A stretch of DNA of 64,000 bases from assembly GCF_003790525.1 (NCBI RefSeq), contig NZ_CP033635.1, one strand, 5' to 3'. A program made the translations under genes and the position numbers. A model generated the notes under the pieces. That model was not told the DNA's origin. It did not search any database and worked only from the letters and a program-made list of their open reading frames with translations. The stretch is from Escherichia coli. Its GTDB lineage: Bacteria > Pseudomonadota > Gammaproteobacteria > Enterobacterales > Enterobacteriaceae. Shown piece by piece: positions 5,748 to 30,016 of this stretch. The number at the start of each line of letters is the position of its first letter. The first letter of the stretch is position 1.

Positions 5748-6019
5748 TATCAATCCTTTTTCAACAAATTATTCGATGCGTTCCCACGGAATAAGATTAT
5801 CCATAAGAACAGCCAGTAAAATTCCGACCAGTAAGCCGTTACTGAGCAGAGGACGAAGCGTTAATGGAAGGTCTTGCAGATACACAGGCGGTAATGCCAT
5901 TAAAAATATGCCGACAAATAACGGCAATGCGAGTCGATAAATATTGCGAGCGGTAAACGTTATTTGCTGGCTAAACACCAGCGCGGAAAAGAGTAAAGGC
6001 AGATGGTAATGACTCCAAC

Positions 6020-25585: not shown

Positions 25586-26503
25586 ATGCTTATCTTTATC
25601 CCTATTCTCATTTTTGTCGCGCTGGTCATTGTCGGCGCGGGCGTCAAAATCGTGCCGCAGGGCTATCAATGGACGGTAGAGCGTTTTGGTCGCTATACCA
25701 AAACGTTACAGCCAGGTCTAAGCCTAGTGGTGCCCTTTATGGATCGCATTGGTCGCAAGATCAATATGATGGAGCAAGTGCTCGACATCCCTTCCCAGGA
25801 AGTTATCTCGAAAGATAACGCCAACGTTACCATCGACGCCGTGTGCTTTATTCAGGTGATTGATGCCCCGCGCGCCGCTTATGAAGTCAGCAATCTGGAG
25901 CTGGCGATCATCAACCTGACCATGACTAACATCCGTACCGTGCTGGGTTCAATGGAACTTGATGAAATGCTCTCTCAGCGCGACAGCATCAACTCACGCC
26001 TGCTGCGTATTGTCGATGAGGCCACCAACCCGTGGGGGATTAAAGTCACCCGTATTGAAATTCGCGACGTGCGCCCACCGGCAGAGCTTATCTCTTCAAT
26101 GAACGCGCAGATGAAAGCGGAACGTACCAAACGCGCTTACATCCTTGAAGCGGAAGGGATCCGTCAGGCGGAAATCCTCAAAGCCGAAGGTGAAAAACAG
26201 TCGCAAATCCTGAAAGCGGAAGGTGAACGTCAGTCGGCATTCTTACAGGCCGAAGCGCGTGAACGTTCTGCCGAAGCGGAAGCCCGCGCCACCAAAATGG
26301 TGTCTGAAGCCATTGCCTCCGGCGATATTCAGGCGGTGAACTACTTCGTCGCACAGAAATACACCGAAGCGTTACAGCAGATCGGTTCCTCCAGTAACAG
26401 CAAAGTAGTGATGATGCCATTAGAGGCCAGCAGCCTGATGGGGTCGATTGCCGGGATTGCCGAGCTGGTGAAAGACAGCGCCAACAAACGGACTCAGCCA
26501 TGA
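25586..26503 (+). CDS. qmcA: SPFH/band-7 (stomatin-like) membrane protease modulator
   Basis: ORF track, 305 aa; recognised YbbK/QmcA. Confidence 0.88.
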
Positions 26504-26958
26504 TGGAGTTAATGGTCGTTCATCCACATATTTTCTGGCTCAGTCTCGGCGGGTTGCTGCTGGCAGCCGAGATGCTGGGCGGAAATGGTTATTTGTTGTG
26601 GAGCGGCGTGGCAGCGGTGATTACCGGCCTGGTGGTCTGGCTGGTGCCGCTGGGTTGGGAGTGGCAAGGGGTGATGTTTGCCATCCTGACGCTGCTCGCC
26701 GCCTGGCTGTGGTGGAAATGGTTGTCGCGGCGGGTGCGCGAACAAAAGCACAGCGACAGTCATTTAAACCAGCGCGGGCAGCAGCTGATTGGCCGACGTT
26801 TTGTGCTGGAATCTCCGCTGGTCAACGGGCGCGGTCATATGCGCGTCGGCGACAGTTCATGGCCTGTCAGCGCCAGCGAGGATCTCGGTGCAGGTACGCA
26901 TGTTGAAGTCATTGCGATAGAAGGGATAACGCTGATCATCCGTGCGGTCATCGCCTGA
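26500..26958 (+). CDS. ybbJ: NfeD-like membrane protein, partner of QmcA
   Basis: ORF track, 152 aa; 4-nt overlap with qmcA. Confidence 0.85.
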
Positions 26959-27060: not shown

Positions 27061-27423
27061 TTACTCTTCCCGGCCTTTACCCATACTTTTTTGGTCTTCA
27101 TCCGGATAGTGTTTTTTTAGATATTCCAGGACGTTTTTATTGACCTTGTGTTGGGTATACACCCACCCTTTCCAGTAATCAGGTTGGTCCAGGTAAACTT
27201 CTGGCGGAATGGTGAAATCAGAAAGCGTTAACCATTCGGCTAACAGATCGGGGTTTCGTTTCTGGATCAACTGCAACAGCATGATCAGCGACATGGCAGA
27301 GGCAGGAGCCGTACTATCGCCGCTTAAATACTTCCACACTGTCGACCGGTTCGAACGAAAAAGGATCGGTAGCAATGCCCGGTCCAGATTCATTTCATTA
27401 AAAATCTTCTCAAATTCATTCAT
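27061..27423 (-). CDS. Hypothetical protein, 120 aa, no signal peptide; function unknown
   Basis: ORF track; not recognised; divergent from the adhesin gene across an AT-rich intergenic region; not present at this position in my recollection of K-12. Confidence 0.5.
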   Translation of the reverse strand: MNEFEKIFNEMNLDRALLPILFRSNRSTVWKYLSGDSTAPASAMSLIMLLQLIQKRNPDLLAEWLTLSDFTIPPEVYLDQPDYWKGWVYTQHKVNKNVLEYLKKHYPDEDQKSMGKGREE

Positions 27424-27788
27424 TTAAATTTCCTGCCTGGCGTAAACCTCTTAAAAATTGAGATTTATCAAAGAAACGCATTTTAGCACACATCAGGAAC
27501 CGCTTCACGTTTAGTCCAGAAACAGAATTTATTTCGCTTATCAAAACAAGTCTTTACTCTTTTTTACATTGAAAGAGCACGAAATAATTTCCTTTTTTAT
27601 TTATATAAGAAACTATTTTTGTTCCTTATTGGTGGTGTTTACGCTTACACAAGACAAAAATGCGCTTTACATCACACAAATGGCGGCGTAGATTTCGATC
27701 AAATTGCAACGCAGTTTATTTCTTAAAACAATATTATTTGTTTCTTATAGAAACATTAATGCGACTTATTTTGAACAAGAGAAAATGA

Positions 27789-28805
27789 ATGAAAACTGTA
27801 AACGTAGCTTTACTGGCACTCATAATTTCAGCAATATCCAGCCCTGTTGTTTTAGCTGGTGATACCATTGAAGCGGCGGCAACAGAGCTTTCAGCCATTA
27901 ACTCTGGCATGTCGCAATCGGAGATTGAGCAGAAGATTACCCGCTTTTTAGAACGCACAGACAACAGCCCCGCTGCGTATACCTATTTGACTGAACATCA
28001 CTACATCCCTTCTGAAACACCTGATACCACTCAGACTCCCACTGTCCAGACAGATCCTGACGCAGGACAAAAAACCGTTGCCGCTACAGGTGATGTACAG
28101 ACAACCGCCCGTTATCAGAGCATGATCAACGCCCGACAGTCTGCGGTAACTGATGCCCAGCAAACGCAAATTACAGAGCAACAGGCGCAGATCGTAGCCA
28201 CACAAAAAACGCTCGCCGCGACTGGAGATACGCAAAATACCGCGCATTATCAGGAGATGATTAATGCCAGACTGGCGGCTCAAAATGAGGCTAATCAGCG
28301 CACTACCACGGAACAAGGGCAGAAAATGAATGCACTGACAACCGATGTGGCAGCACAACAGCAAAAAGAAAGGGCTCAATACGATAAACAAATGCAAAGT
28401 CTGGCGCAGAAGTCTGTCCAGGCACATGAGCAAATTGAAAGTCTGAGACAAGATTCCGCACAAACGCAGCAACAGTTAACCAACACGCAAAAACGGGTCG
28501 CAGATAACAGCCAACAAATTAACACGCTCAATAACCATTTCGATTCTCTGAAAAACGAAGTTGAGGACAATCGTAAAGAAGCCAATGCGGGAACTGCATC
28601 TGCCATTGCTATCGCCTCACAACCACAGGTGAAAACCGGTGACGTGATGATGGTGTCAGCGGGAGCGGGAACGTTCAACGGTGAATCTGCGGTGTCTGTA
28701 GGAACATCTTTTAATGCCGGAACGCATACGGTACTTAAAGCAGGTATTTCTGCGGATACACAATCTGATTTCGGTGCGGGTGTCGGCGTGGGATATTCGT
28801 TCTAA
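27789..28805 (+). CDS. Miniature trimeric autotransporter adhesin-like protein: signal peptide, Gln-rich coiled-coil stalk, YadA-type C-terminal beta-barrel anchor
   Basis: ORF track, 338 aa; N-terminal signal-like MKTVNVALLALIISAISSPVVLAG; stalk-anchor junction KEANAGTASAIAIASQPQ; anchor GDVMMVSAGAGTFNGESAVSVGTSF...VLKAGIS...GAGVGVGYSF with terminal aromatic; purine-rich RBS-like AAGAGA upstream. Confidence 0.8.
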   Translation: MKTVNVALLALIISAISSPVVLAGDTIEAAATELSAINSGMSQSEIEQKITRFLERTDNSPAAYTYLTEHHYIPSETPDTTQTPTVQTDPDAGQKTVAATGDVQTTARYQSMINARQSAVTDAQQTQITEQQAQIVATQKTLAATGDTQNTAHYQEMINARLAAQNEANQRTTTEQGQKMNALTTDVAAQQQKERAQYDKQMQSLAQKSVQAHEQIESLRQDSAQTQQQLTNTQKRVADNSQQINTLNNHFDSLKNEVEDNRKEANAGTASAIAIASQPQVKTGDVMMVSAGAGTFNGESAVSVGTSFNAGTHTVLKAGISADTQSDFGAGVGVGYSF

Positions 28806-28858
28806 TTTTAACAGCAATTTCTTATTCGCAATTTTCCGCACATTATTTAAGGTTAACA

Positions 28859-29281
28859 ATGATGAATAGCTCCATTAAATCGTTTTCCCTGCTGGCGGTT
28901 ATATTACTGGCTGGCTGTAGTTCACCCACTTCCCGCATCGCAGATTGCCAGGCGCAGGGCGTCAGCCATGACACCTGTTATCTCGCAGAACAGCAGCGTC
29001 AGACGGCTATTTTAAGTGCATCCGAGGCGCAGGCATTTAAAAATGCAGAAGCCGCACAACATGCCCAGGCGGCAAAGAAAGCCATTTATAAAGGATTTGG
29101 CATGACCTTTAGAATGAGCAGTAAGAACTTTGCTTATCTCAATGATTCATTATGTGCAATTGATGAAGACAATAAAGATGCCACTGTTTATCAGTCAGGT
29201 CTTTATAACGTCATTGTTTATCACCACACGGGAAAAGTCGCCTTAATGAAGGAAGGTCAGTTTGTGGGTTATTTAAAATGA
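28859..29281 (+). CDS. Putative lipoprotein, 140 aa
   Basis: ORF track; signal peptide with lipobox LLAGC (Cys20); immediately downstream of the adhesin gene. Confidence 0.6.
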   Translation: MMNSSIKSFSLLAVILLAGCSSPTSRIADCQAQGVSHDTCYLAEQQRQTAILSASEAQAFKNAEAAQHAQAAKKAIYKGFGMTFRMSSKNFAYLNDSLCAIDEDNKDATVYQSGLYNVIVYHHTGKVALMKEGQFVGYLK

Positions 29282-29481
29282 AGGAGCAAAGGAAAATCCC
29301 CCTGACGCATATTATGATTATCGGTGCGTTTATTTTTGCCTTCTTGCAAGTGGTGTTATTAGCCTCCCTGGTTCACGCTGTGAATGTTAACAACGAAATC
29401 CAGGAAGGCTTATTTCAGTCGGGGCGCATTATGGTAGAAAGTTTGCAGCATATTCTTTCGGTGCAAACGGGGATTAACTGA
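29278..29481 (+). CDS. Putative small single-pass membrane protein, 67 aa
   Basis: ORF track; start overlaps the lipoprotein stop (ATGA); one hydrophobic helix IMIIGAFIFAFLQVVLLASLV. Confidence 0.4.
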   Translation: MKEQRKIPLTHIMIIGAFIFAFLQVVLLASLVHAVNVNNEIQEGLFQSGRIMVESLQHILSVQTGIN

Positions 29482-29484
29482 TTT

Positions 29485-29892
29485 TCACCCCGCCCGATGA
29501 TGACAGCAGCCGGAGAGATTTTCGATAATCGGGCAGTCGGCGCTGTCATCACCGGGGCAGGCATTCGCCAGCGCCAGTAGCTGGTTGCGCATGGATTGCA
29601 GTTCTTCGATATGCCGTTCGATCTCCGCTACCTTCTCCAACGTACGACGTTTGACGTCGGCACTGTGACGCTGCGGATCGTTAAACAGATTCACCAGCTC
29701 GCCGCTCTCTTCCAGGTTAAAGCCCACCTGGCGTGCCTGCCGCAGTAAGGTCAGTTCGTTGAGATGCTGCTGCGTGTAGGTTCGATAACCATTTTCGCTG
29801 CGCATCGGCGGCGTCACCAGCCCCTTCTCTTCATAGAAGCGGATTGCTTTGCTGGTCAGGCCGGTAATTTTTGCTACATCGCTAATGTTCAT
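29485..29892 (-). CDS. cueR: MerR-family copper-responsive regulator
   Basis: ORF track, 135 aa; C-terminal metal-binding CCHH; recognised CueR. Confidence 0.92.
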
Positions 29893-30016
29893 CGTTCGCG
29901 CAACGCCTCCTGTGCTTTGTTAAAGGGTTTCAACAAATATTCAAGCACGTTTTTTTGCCAGTGCGAATATCGACCGCCACCACAATAATACAGGAAGTAC
30001 TGCGCACAGAGAGGTG

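Follow-up and report, generated by a model that had tools for sequence, protein, structure and literature searches.

A small lipoprotein gene linked to short, head-less trimeric autotransporters in O-island 29 of Escherichia coli

Described helpers and the O-island 29 locus

Two helpers specific to trimeric autotransporter adhesins (TAAs) are known, SadB and TpgA. The gene for SadB (Salmonella STM3690) lies directly upstream of sadA, and its product, a trimeric lipoprotein of the inner membrane, improves the display of SadA; this effect is itself partial (PMC3953254). TpgA, the periplasmic Acinetobacter partner of AtaA, joins a domain resembling BamE to an OmpA-type peptidoglycan-binding domain. 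Here we analyze a lipoprotein gene that lies directly downstream of a TAA gene in a 64,000-nucleotide stretch of an Escherichia coli genome (hereafter the window; RefSeq assembly GCF_003790525.1, contig NZ_CP033635.1). The window agrees with the chromosome of E. coli SMS-3-5 at 100% identity. Homologues of this gene are linked to short, head-less TAA genes far more often than expected by chance, and we tentatively propose that the lipoprotein is an outer-membrane-anchored, periplasm-facing partner of such TAAs (Saa-like or "GmrA" proteins), distinct from SadB.

RadD of Fusobacterium is a monomeric type Va autotransporter. Its operon encodes this adhesin together with FAD-I, a small lipoprotein, and the small proteins RapA and RapB (PMC7023056). 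Like the present locus, it combines the gene for a type V adhesin with one for a small lipoprotein and with very short uncharacterized open reading frames (ORFs); the radD operon belongs to a different phylum and is set beside ours by operon logic. A 2026 preprint that surveyed gene neighborhoods for TAA helpers, seeded on genomes with a head-domain TAA, reported SadB, TpgA and DUF2827 only, and the lipoprotein family described here is unreported there. The genes at our locus are already annotated, the island that carries them has been named and a deletion of the lipoprotein gene has been made. What is new is the definition of the lipoprotein family and its two-module architecture, its recurrent linkage to head-less TAAs and its distinctness from SadB.

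The lipoprotein gene is part of a four-gene insert, comprising a 120-residue ORF, a 338-residue gene, the lipoprotein gene and a 67-residue ORF, placed between the core genes ybbJ and cueR. By mapping published recombineering arms onto an O157:H7 copy, we identified this insert as O-island 29 (OI-29) of enterohemorrhagic E. coli (EHEC): the arms span exactly 2,643 bp, and OI-29 is described as a 2,643-bp island with z0638, z0639 ("gmrA") and z0640 (Yang et al. 2018, PMC5826968). Primer mapping assigned z0638 to the 140-residue lipoprotein, z0639/gmrA to exactly the 338-residue YadA-anchor gene and z0640 to the 120-residue ORF. The features that concern the TAA and the lipoprotein are as follows.

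27789-28805, plus strand: 338-residue head-less protein of the trimeric autotransporter type, with signal peptide, coiled-coil passenger and YadA anchor (Pfam, RefSeq, PHROGs)
28806-28858, plus strand: 53-nt spacer with a conserved Shine-Dalgarno-like TTTAAGGTTAACA directly before the ATG (sequence)
28859-29281, plus strand: 140-residue lipoprotein, orthologue of z0638
Residues 1-19 of the lipoprotein: signal peptide
28916-28918: predicted lipidated cysteine of the lipoprotein, C20
28919-29068 (residues 21-70): N-module, with a helical hairpin (Cys30-X9-Cys40) and then a helix predicted at residues 37-69
29081-29275 (residues 75-139): C-module, a predicted 8-stranded beta-barrel

The upstream gene has the features of a trimeric autotransporter. 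Direct reading of its sequence revealed an N-terminal Sec-type signal sequence, MKTVNVALLALIISAISSPVVLA/GD, and Pfam searches placed a four-strand YadA_anchor domain (PF03895) at residues 279-338 (E = 2.6e-11, 60 of 60 model positions) and coiled-coil families over residues 100-270, with no head or stalk domains among the Pfam matches. The protein also matches a PHROG "adhesin" family (E = 1e-21) and is named "YadA family autotransporter adhesin" in RefSeq; its orthologue in strain Sakai, ECs0548, has been listed as a "Saa-like protein" (Ogura et al. 2007, PMC2323221).

We consider the lipoprotein gene and the 67-residue ORF that follows it to be real genes under purifying selection, because several lines of evidence agree. 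Both are carried as coding sequences (CDSs) in RefSeq (SMS-3-5 and O157:H7), and of 5426 complete E. coli genomes, 1416 contain the 623-bp segment with both genes, 1403 of these with at least 95% identity; the roughly 26% of genomes with the lipoprotein segment include O157:H7, neonatal meningitis (NMEC) and avian pathogenic (APEC) strains. Within Escherichia, the ratio of nonsynonymous to synonymous substitution rates (dN/dS) was 0.03-0.05 for the lipoprotein and 0.09-0.40 for the 67-residue ORF. Pseudocitrobacter is distant enough for synonymous sites to be saturated, and there too the two reading frames and the ATGA junction between them are kept. The first-pass annotation of this DNA, made from the sequence alone, had described a 140-residue lipoprotein with an LLAGC lipobox that starts 53 nt past the TAA-like gene, and our analysis bore this description out, with the distance counted from the TAA stop codon.

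The lipobox, L16-L-A-G-C20, follows a hydrophobic h-region and fits the bacterial lipoprotein pattern [LVI][ASTVI][GAS]C, and its cysteine is invariant in an alignment of 21 homologues. Under the Lol avoidance rule of Enterobacteriaceae, lipoproteins that lack Asp at position +2 are sorted to the outer membrane. Since the +2 residue is Ser here, and is Ser, Thr or Gln, never Asp, in the 29 homologues, of 31 examined, whose lipobox was correctly parsed, sorting of the lipoprotein to the outer membrane is predicted.

The family has few members: 152 matches came from an exhaustive profile search that covered 1.84 billion representative proteins and 55 from a word-indexed search of 5.8 billion, and the members that are named are Enterobacterales. 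No family in Pfam (even at E = 10), NCBIfam, PHROGs or PADLOC matched the lipoprotein. Its sub-threshold matches were limited to models for TraV and for an "XAC1346 family secretion chaperone"; XAC1346 was absent from the literature that we searched. A phmmer search of all PDB chains, with E up to 10, returned three unrelated chance matches.

Conservation within the family divides the protein into two modules. The N-module (residues 1-70) contains the lipobox followed by a motif resembling S-R-M-A-x-C-x-A-x-G-[VI]-S-x-D-T-C-Y-L-A-E-Q-N-R-Q, in which Cys30 and Cys40 are nearly invariant, and then a long Ala/Gln-rich helix; the C-module conserves Y111..G114 and Y121...G125-K126. AlphaFold2, supplied with a 59-sequence alignment, predicted helices at residues 23-32 and 37-69 followed by eight strands with predicted local distance difference test (pLDDT) values above 92, with a mean pLDDT of 82 for the whole protein. 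Foldseek found nothing significant for this model in the PDB and retrieved unannotated family members only from AFDB50.

Each module also occurs separately. Lone N-module lipoproteins of 63-68 residues are encoded by solitary genes in Aeromonas, Pseudomonas, Buttiauxella, Atlantibacter and Silvania, and C-module-only proteins exist with ordinary signal peptides. The N-module-only genes appear to be monocistronic, with varied neighbors (L031-L054, near position 6000 of each locus; for example, L031:5956-6153 and L038:5962-6159). Large surface-type proteins of about 900-1200 residues that we took to be from Firmicutes (P0158, P0182, P0184 and P0188) contain five to eight C-module matches each. 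We judged these matches (E = 1e-9 to 3e-4) uninformative, as they fall on a short Cys-rich hairpin repeat, ENE..ATC..DGSYD.VVYC, and probably reflect a common beta-hairpin pattern and not homology.

Linkage of the lipoprotein family to head-less TAAs

We scanned one genome per GTDB species with patterns derived from the family, called ORFs in all 51 loci returned and searched these ORFs with hidden Markov models (HMMs) built from the four island proteins. The two-module lipoprotein was present in 29 loci, in three of which another C-domain replaces the usual one, and the remaining 22 contained the short N-module form only. A closely related YadA-anchor gene lay upstream on the same strand in 13 of the 29 two-module loci, directly adjacent in 12 and 1.9 kb away in the other (L023). 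Two further two-module loci (L010 and L011) have a divergent TAA-like gene, which encodes a protein with a signal peptide and coiled coil that ends in ...G[FL]SGDF and matches YadA_anchor at E = 0.9; if these look-alikes are counted, 15 of 29 are TAA-linked. All 22 short-form loci lack a TAA.

A closely related upstream YadA-anchor gene on the same strand was recorded for 17 loci, with a gap of at most 330 nt in 15, and in every TAA-linked locus the lipoprotein gene is the downstream one. The anchor HMM scored the linked TAAs at E = 1e-36 to 1e-44, and the Yersinia protein at 7.5e-11. Nearly all sequences retrieved when the TAA anchor was used as query in a word-indexed search were E. coli fragments.

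When loci found by other routes are included, the TAA-lipoprotein pair occurs in seven unrelated chromosomal contexts and on one plasmid, giving at least eight contexts. The plasmid is the conjugative IncFIB plasmid pENTE01 of Enterobacter sp. 638, in which a 427-residue TAA gene is followed by a gene for a 152-residue lipoprotein with the same N-module and an alternative C-domain. The linkage persists when the C-domain is swapped (L039 and L058), and in a rough neighbor-joining tree the TAA-linked lipoproteins are scattered over the whole family. We estimate that a random gene would have a TAA gene as its upstream neighbor in roughly 0.1% of cases. The linkage of the lipoprotein to TAAs exceeds chance by far and speaks for a functional tie between them.

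We rejected a mobile-element origin for the lipoprotein gene, as no phage record carried it in our search of phage records and it is rarely present on true plasmids. One locus, L016 (CACSKA010000003.1), is labeled Chryseobacterium sp. 18061 but encodes an enterobacterial-type lipoprotein and shares its flanks with Phytobacter massiliensis; this assembly is probably mislabeled or contaminated.

Within the window, a consensus scan gave a single promoter candidate for the three plus-strand genes and none in the 53-nt spacer. The last 25 or so nucleotides of the spacer, including the Shine-Dalgarno-like AAGG, are conserved in Escherichia, and the rest varies by insertions and deletions. RNA folding of the spacer gave no significant structure (z = 0.23), and no structure or terminator above background was detected in it. 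The relevant elements upstream of the lipoprotein gene are listed below; the promoter match is a pattern only, and such matches are no commoner in the region than in shuffled sequence.

27666-27694, plus strand: sigma-70-like promoter match (consensus scan, 9/12), sole candidate for the three plus-strand genes
28776-28800: weak terminator-like hairpin within the end of the TAA gene

Published RNA-seq of EHEC grown in Dulbecco's modified Eagle medium reports 20, 96 and 44 reads per kilobase per million mapped reads for z0638, z0639 and z0640, respectively, and all three genes are shut off upon contact with HeLa cells (PMC5826968). The lipoprotein-to-TAA ratio of about 1:5 fits co-transcription with attenuation, without proving it.

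Weighing a partner role for the lipoprotein

The tentative reading introduced above, that the lipoprotein is an outer-membrane-anchored partner of short head-less TAAs, can be set out as follows. The lipoprotein gene would be transcribed with or alongside the autotransporter gene, and its product, after export by Sec and lipidation at Cys20, would be delivered by Lol to the inner leaflet of the outer membrane. There, a helical hairpin, probably stapled by a Cys30-Cys40 disulfide, and a helix of about 33 residues would hold the 8-stranded barrel out in the periplasm. From this position, at the periplasmic face of the outer membrane, the lipoprotein may assist the assembly of the autotransporter, stabilize it or anchor it, in a role functionally analogous to that of SadB or TpgA for a protein unrelated to both. 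The 67-residue protein would be a lineage-specific inner-membrane add-on, made in fixed proportion through translational coupling, whose periplasmic tail could touch the lipoprotein. We infer the outer-membrane location, the periplasmic orientation, the disulfide, any contact with the autotransporter and the way in which it would be helped.

In favor of a partner role are the linkage and its spread across the family, the cassette structure, the spacer devoid of a promoter, the co-regulation in EHEC, the +2 residue and the precedent of SadB and TpgA. The first-pass annotation had proposed that the lipoprotein and the 67-residue peptide form a dedicated helper pair for the adhesin. Part of this proposal stands: linkage of the lipoprotein to short head-less TAAs is non-random (13 of 29 loci, at least eight contexts). 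The 67-residue peptide is not conserved with it.

A substantial set of observations weighs against a partner role. Roughly one in two of the intact two-module homologues lacks a TAA next to it; the first-pass annotation had held that wide occurrence of the two genes away from a TAA gene would count against a helper function, and to this extent such occurrence was found. The TAA has evidently been lost from the same site, with the lipoprotein intact, in L022, L034 and L057: at the thiM site, for instance, Enterobacter asburiae, E. chuandaensis and Lelliottia have TAA and lipoprotein, and in E. soli and Klebsiella aerogenes the lipoprotein is present by itself (loci L034 and L057, the latter K. 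aerogenes). Well-conserved lone copies also occur in a clade that spans Pluralibacter, Enterobacter and Pantoea, and the stand-alone N-module and C-module proteins have no TAA nearby. Conversely, 62 phage records carry related YadA anchors, each with identity below 60%, and none of them has such a lipoprotein alongside. A GC-rich hairpin lies between the TAA and lipoprotein genes of Pseudocitrobacter and could separate their transcription.

Published genetics points the same way. Deletion of gmrA lowers motility and fliC/motA expression, and deletion of z0638 leaves them unchanged; z0640 deletion is likewise without motility loss, gmrA alone restores the motility of a strain deleted for all of OI-29, and the OI-29 deletion does not change adherence to HeLa or Caco-2 cells (PMC5826968). 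By our mapping of the arms, the z0638 deletion also removes the ATG of the 67-residue ORF. These data weigh against an essential helper role; they scored motility rather than display, however, and even SadB helps SadA only in part.

The strongest competing explanation, which we judge somewhat unlikely, is that the lipoprotein serves the envelope in a way that does not involve the autotransporter and shares only an island and a regulon with it. It might be a protective binder or inhibitor with a small beta-barrel at its core, like the lipoprotein lysozyme inhibitors MliC, PliC and the Neisseria protein ACP, with the synteny reflecting co-transfer of a cassette. The intact, conserved homologues that lack a TAA in many genera, the widespread stand-alone modules and the failure of the z0638 deletion to reproduce the gmrA phenotype are all expected under this explanation. 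The C-module is predicted to form an eight-stranded antiparallel beta-barrel of about 70-80 residues, as in MliC and PliC. The likeness to MliC goes no further: Foldseek returned no significant match in the PDB, and we rejected homology with MliC because hhalign of the 59-sequence profile against the MliC sequence, which we had checked against PDB 2F09, aligned the signal peptide only and no match to Pfam MliC (PF09864) was obtained. MliC is recognized by the motifs SxSGAxY and YxxxTKG. The lipoprotein family does not reproduce them and conserves instead the tyrosine, glycine and lysine positions of its own C-module, and MliC, PliC and ACP lack the Cys-X9-Cys helical N-module. An independent function also leaves unexplained why linkage to one TAA subfamily recurs in eight contexts and survives a swap of the C-domain.

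If the partner reading holds, the family would represent a third, unrelated solution to TAA assistance, associated with head-less coiled-coil TAAs across Enterobacterales, and its presence in about 26% of complete E. coli genomes would make it an easy genetic system. A bolder version, which we consider doubtful, is that the TAA, the outer-membrane lipoprotein and the coupled protein form a self-contained envelope module, that the lipoprotein founds a third class of TAA accessory and that GmrA is in reality this outer-membrane TAA and acts on flagellar genes indirectly, through envelope signaling, without binding the fliA promoter. GmrA has been published as a transcription factor that directly activates the fliA promoter, by electrophoretic mobility shift assay and chromatin immunoprecipitation (PMC5826968), and in the literature that we searched nothing linked GmrA to YadA or to autotransporters. 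The architecture read from its sequence is hard to reconcile with a cytoplasmic DNA-binding role; because a signal peptide and a YadA outer-membrane anchor are ill suited to such a role, the effect of GmrA on motility may be indirect. The functions of its operon partners would help to settle the nature of this published fliA activator.

A quite improbable alternative is that the lipoprotein is exposed on the surface, either in an adhesin complex with the autotransporter or displayed in its own right, as are Neisseria lipoproteins with a C-terminal 8-stranded barrel. The likeness to the Neisseria proteins is one of generic fold, and the cassette contains no gene for a Slam-type translocon. More improbable again is that the lipoprotein and the 67-residue ORF are hitch-hiking or decaying genes devoid of current function. 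The absence of a phenotype in the one z0638 deletion study and of matches to known families would agree with decay; the dN/dS values (0.03-0.05 for the lipoprotein, below 0.4 for the peptide), the roughly 1400 E. coli genomes in which the genes are intact with at least 95% identity and the regulated transcription of the lipoprotein gene largely refute it.

The last alternative, which would place the lipoprotein in the SadB/YajI family as a divergent member, we regard as extremely improbable, since it shares with that family a general outline (a lipid anchor, a helix, a beta domain and a place beside a TAA gene) and differs in having no PDB sequence match at E = 10, the opposite gene order, the opposite predicted membrane and no modeling support for a trimer.

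SadB nevertheless offers an analogue for the role suggested here, being likewise a small lipoprotein encoded beside a TAA gene in enterobacteria, with an alpha-helical segment and a periplasm-facing beta-rich domain. The first-pass annotation had drawn this comparison while stating that no sequence similarity could be asserted. That caution was right, as none was detected by sequence or by fold: phmmer against all PDB chains matched neither SadB (4C47) nor YajI (2JWY), and the C-terminal beta domain showed no fold match to SadB. The likeness itself did not hold up in other respects. The SadB gene is upstream of its TAA and ours is downstream; SadB fractionates with the inner membrane, whereas the +2 Ser predicts the outer membrane for the OI-29 lipoprotein. 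SadB serves a very long TAA with head domains, and the OI-29 lipoprotein accompanies a head-less coiled-coil TAA of 338 residues. A trimer model of the lipoprotein, obtained from AlphaFold2 by the workaround of joining three copies through linkers with a 14-row concatenated alignment, reached a predicted TM-score of 0.24, with helix pLDDT of 34-44, and so lent a trimer no support. The role of SadB rests on functional data, and the OI-29 lipoprotein is known here from sequence, synteny and a model.

TpgA resembles the proposed partner in being encoded with a TAA whose display it promotes or which it helps to anchor, on the periplasmic side of the outer membrane. Its BamE-like and OmpA-type domains are not found in the OI-29 lipoprotein, which matches no Pfam family at E = 10 and is predicted to consist of a helical stalk and an 8-stranded barrel.

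We also considered TraV, the outer-membrane lipoprotein of F-type conjugation systems, whose N-terminus resembles that of our protein: in both, the lipobox precedes two cysteines in a short motif that ends in DTC..EQ; one Joint Genome Institute record calls a homologue TraV. The NCBIfam TraV model (TIGR02747) matched the N-terminal 60 residues only (E = 0.0013, 19.5 bits against a cut-off of 44.75), and hhalign against F-plasmid TraV gave a probability of 30% over 41 columns that cover the lipobox and the two-cysteine stretch. The rest of TraV is missing from the lipoprotein, there is no conjugation context and partial matches are present in only about 13 plasmid records. With scores below cut-off and no TraV C-terminal region, we found homology to TraV weak and unconvincing.

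The third gene, the divergent ORF and the flanks

The first-pass annotation had also described the 67-residue product as a single-helix peptide whose gene begins in an ATGA start/stop overlap, and both features were recovered. The remaining features of the insert and its surroundings are listed here.

26500-26958, convergent with cueR: ybbJ, core gene flanking the insert
27061-27423, minus strand: 120-residue divergent ORF, orthologue of z0640, possible helix-turn-helix protein (RefSeq CDS, primer mapping)
29278-29281, plus strand: ATGA overlap of the lipoprotein TGA with the ATG of the 67-residue ORF (sequence)
29278-29481, plus strand: 67-residue peptide, predicted to be a single-pass membrane protein (hydropathy, RefSeq CDS)
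29311-29376 (about residues 12-33): transmembrane segment of the 67-residue peptide (hydropathy)
29485-29892, minus strand: cueR, core gene flanking the insert
29889-29986, minus strand: frameshifted, N-terminally truncated CDS fragment between cueR and ybaT (RefSeq)

Hydropathy analysis of the 67-residue peptide gave one hydrophobic segment, centered on residues 12-33, with a Kyte-Doolittle maximum of 2.65 over 19 residues. Because a basic N-terminus (K2, R5 and K6) precedes the 22-residue hydrophobic segment and an acidic C-terminal tail of 34 residues follows it, the peptide is predicted to reside in the inner membrane with its N-terminus in and its C-terminus out. A signal-peptidase site after VHA is possible, with the caveat that the hydrophobic segment is long for a signal peptide. 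Homologues, which share the motif L[VI]HA[VI]..N.E....[FY]QS, are confined to Escherichia/Shigella (41 clusters among 5.8 billion) and Pseudocitrobacter, and no family in Pfam, NCBIfam, PHROGs or PADLOC matched.

The ATGA (-3) overlap is retained in all six loci with a homologue of the 67-residue ORF, which is consistent with its translational coupling to the lipoprotein gene. Unrelated third genes use the same overlap in L013, L017, L018 and L024 (ATGA) and in L023 (GTGA). Rahnella, an uncultured Enterobacterales genome and Serratia silvae (L022) have a soluble third protein of 70-81 residues, whose gene in S. silvae starts 6 nt past the lipoprotein stop with no overlap, and Pantoea conspicua has a 69-residue protein with a C-terminal hydrophobic segment. 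None of these replacement proteins (encoded at L013:6408-6653, L017:6408-6650, L018:6408-6629, L022:6492-6707, L024:1317-1529 and L023:3069-3278) matched Pfam, NCBIfam, PHROGs or PADLOC. The presence of unrelated small proteins at this position in other genera indicates that the coupled third gene is a variable accessory and not a core part of the cassette, so the 67-residue peptide could not be upheld as a conserved member of the pair. Its stop codon lies 3 nt from that of the convergent cueR gene (29485); the two stops (29479-29487) therefore leave no room for a terminator, and the transcripts must overlap or end inside the opposing gene.

The 120-residue ORF is a conserved companion of the TAA-lipoprotein cassette. 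Homologues lie upstream of the TAA and divergent from it in 11 TAA-linked loci, from Escherichia, Pseudocitrobacter, Rahnella, Yersinia and Ewingella, and also occur in two degenerate loci, from Serratia (L022) and Symbiopectobacterium (L030). Its sole family match was a weak one to the helix-turn-helix region of the MqsA antitoxin (E = 0.12), with none in NCBIfam, PHROGs or PADLOC. As a regulator encoded by the cassette, this ORF is a better candidate than the TAA.

Of the two degenerate loci, L022 (5297-8620, at the qmcA site) has kept the 120-residue ORF, the lipoprotein gene and the third gene, with no TAA, and L030 (4749-9921) is a decayed cassette. Both adjoin qmcA-ybbJ-cueR-copA, the neighborhood of the E. 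coli insert, on the other side of qmcA-ybbJ, a placement that points to an insertion of old date or else to a hot spot used more than once. On the far side of cueR in the window, the CDS fragment at 29889-29986 occupies the position at which O157:H7 carries genes for an HlyD-family protein and a type I secretion ATPase; because those secretion genes stand at that place, the fragment may be a remnant of a neighboring HlyD/type I secretion island.

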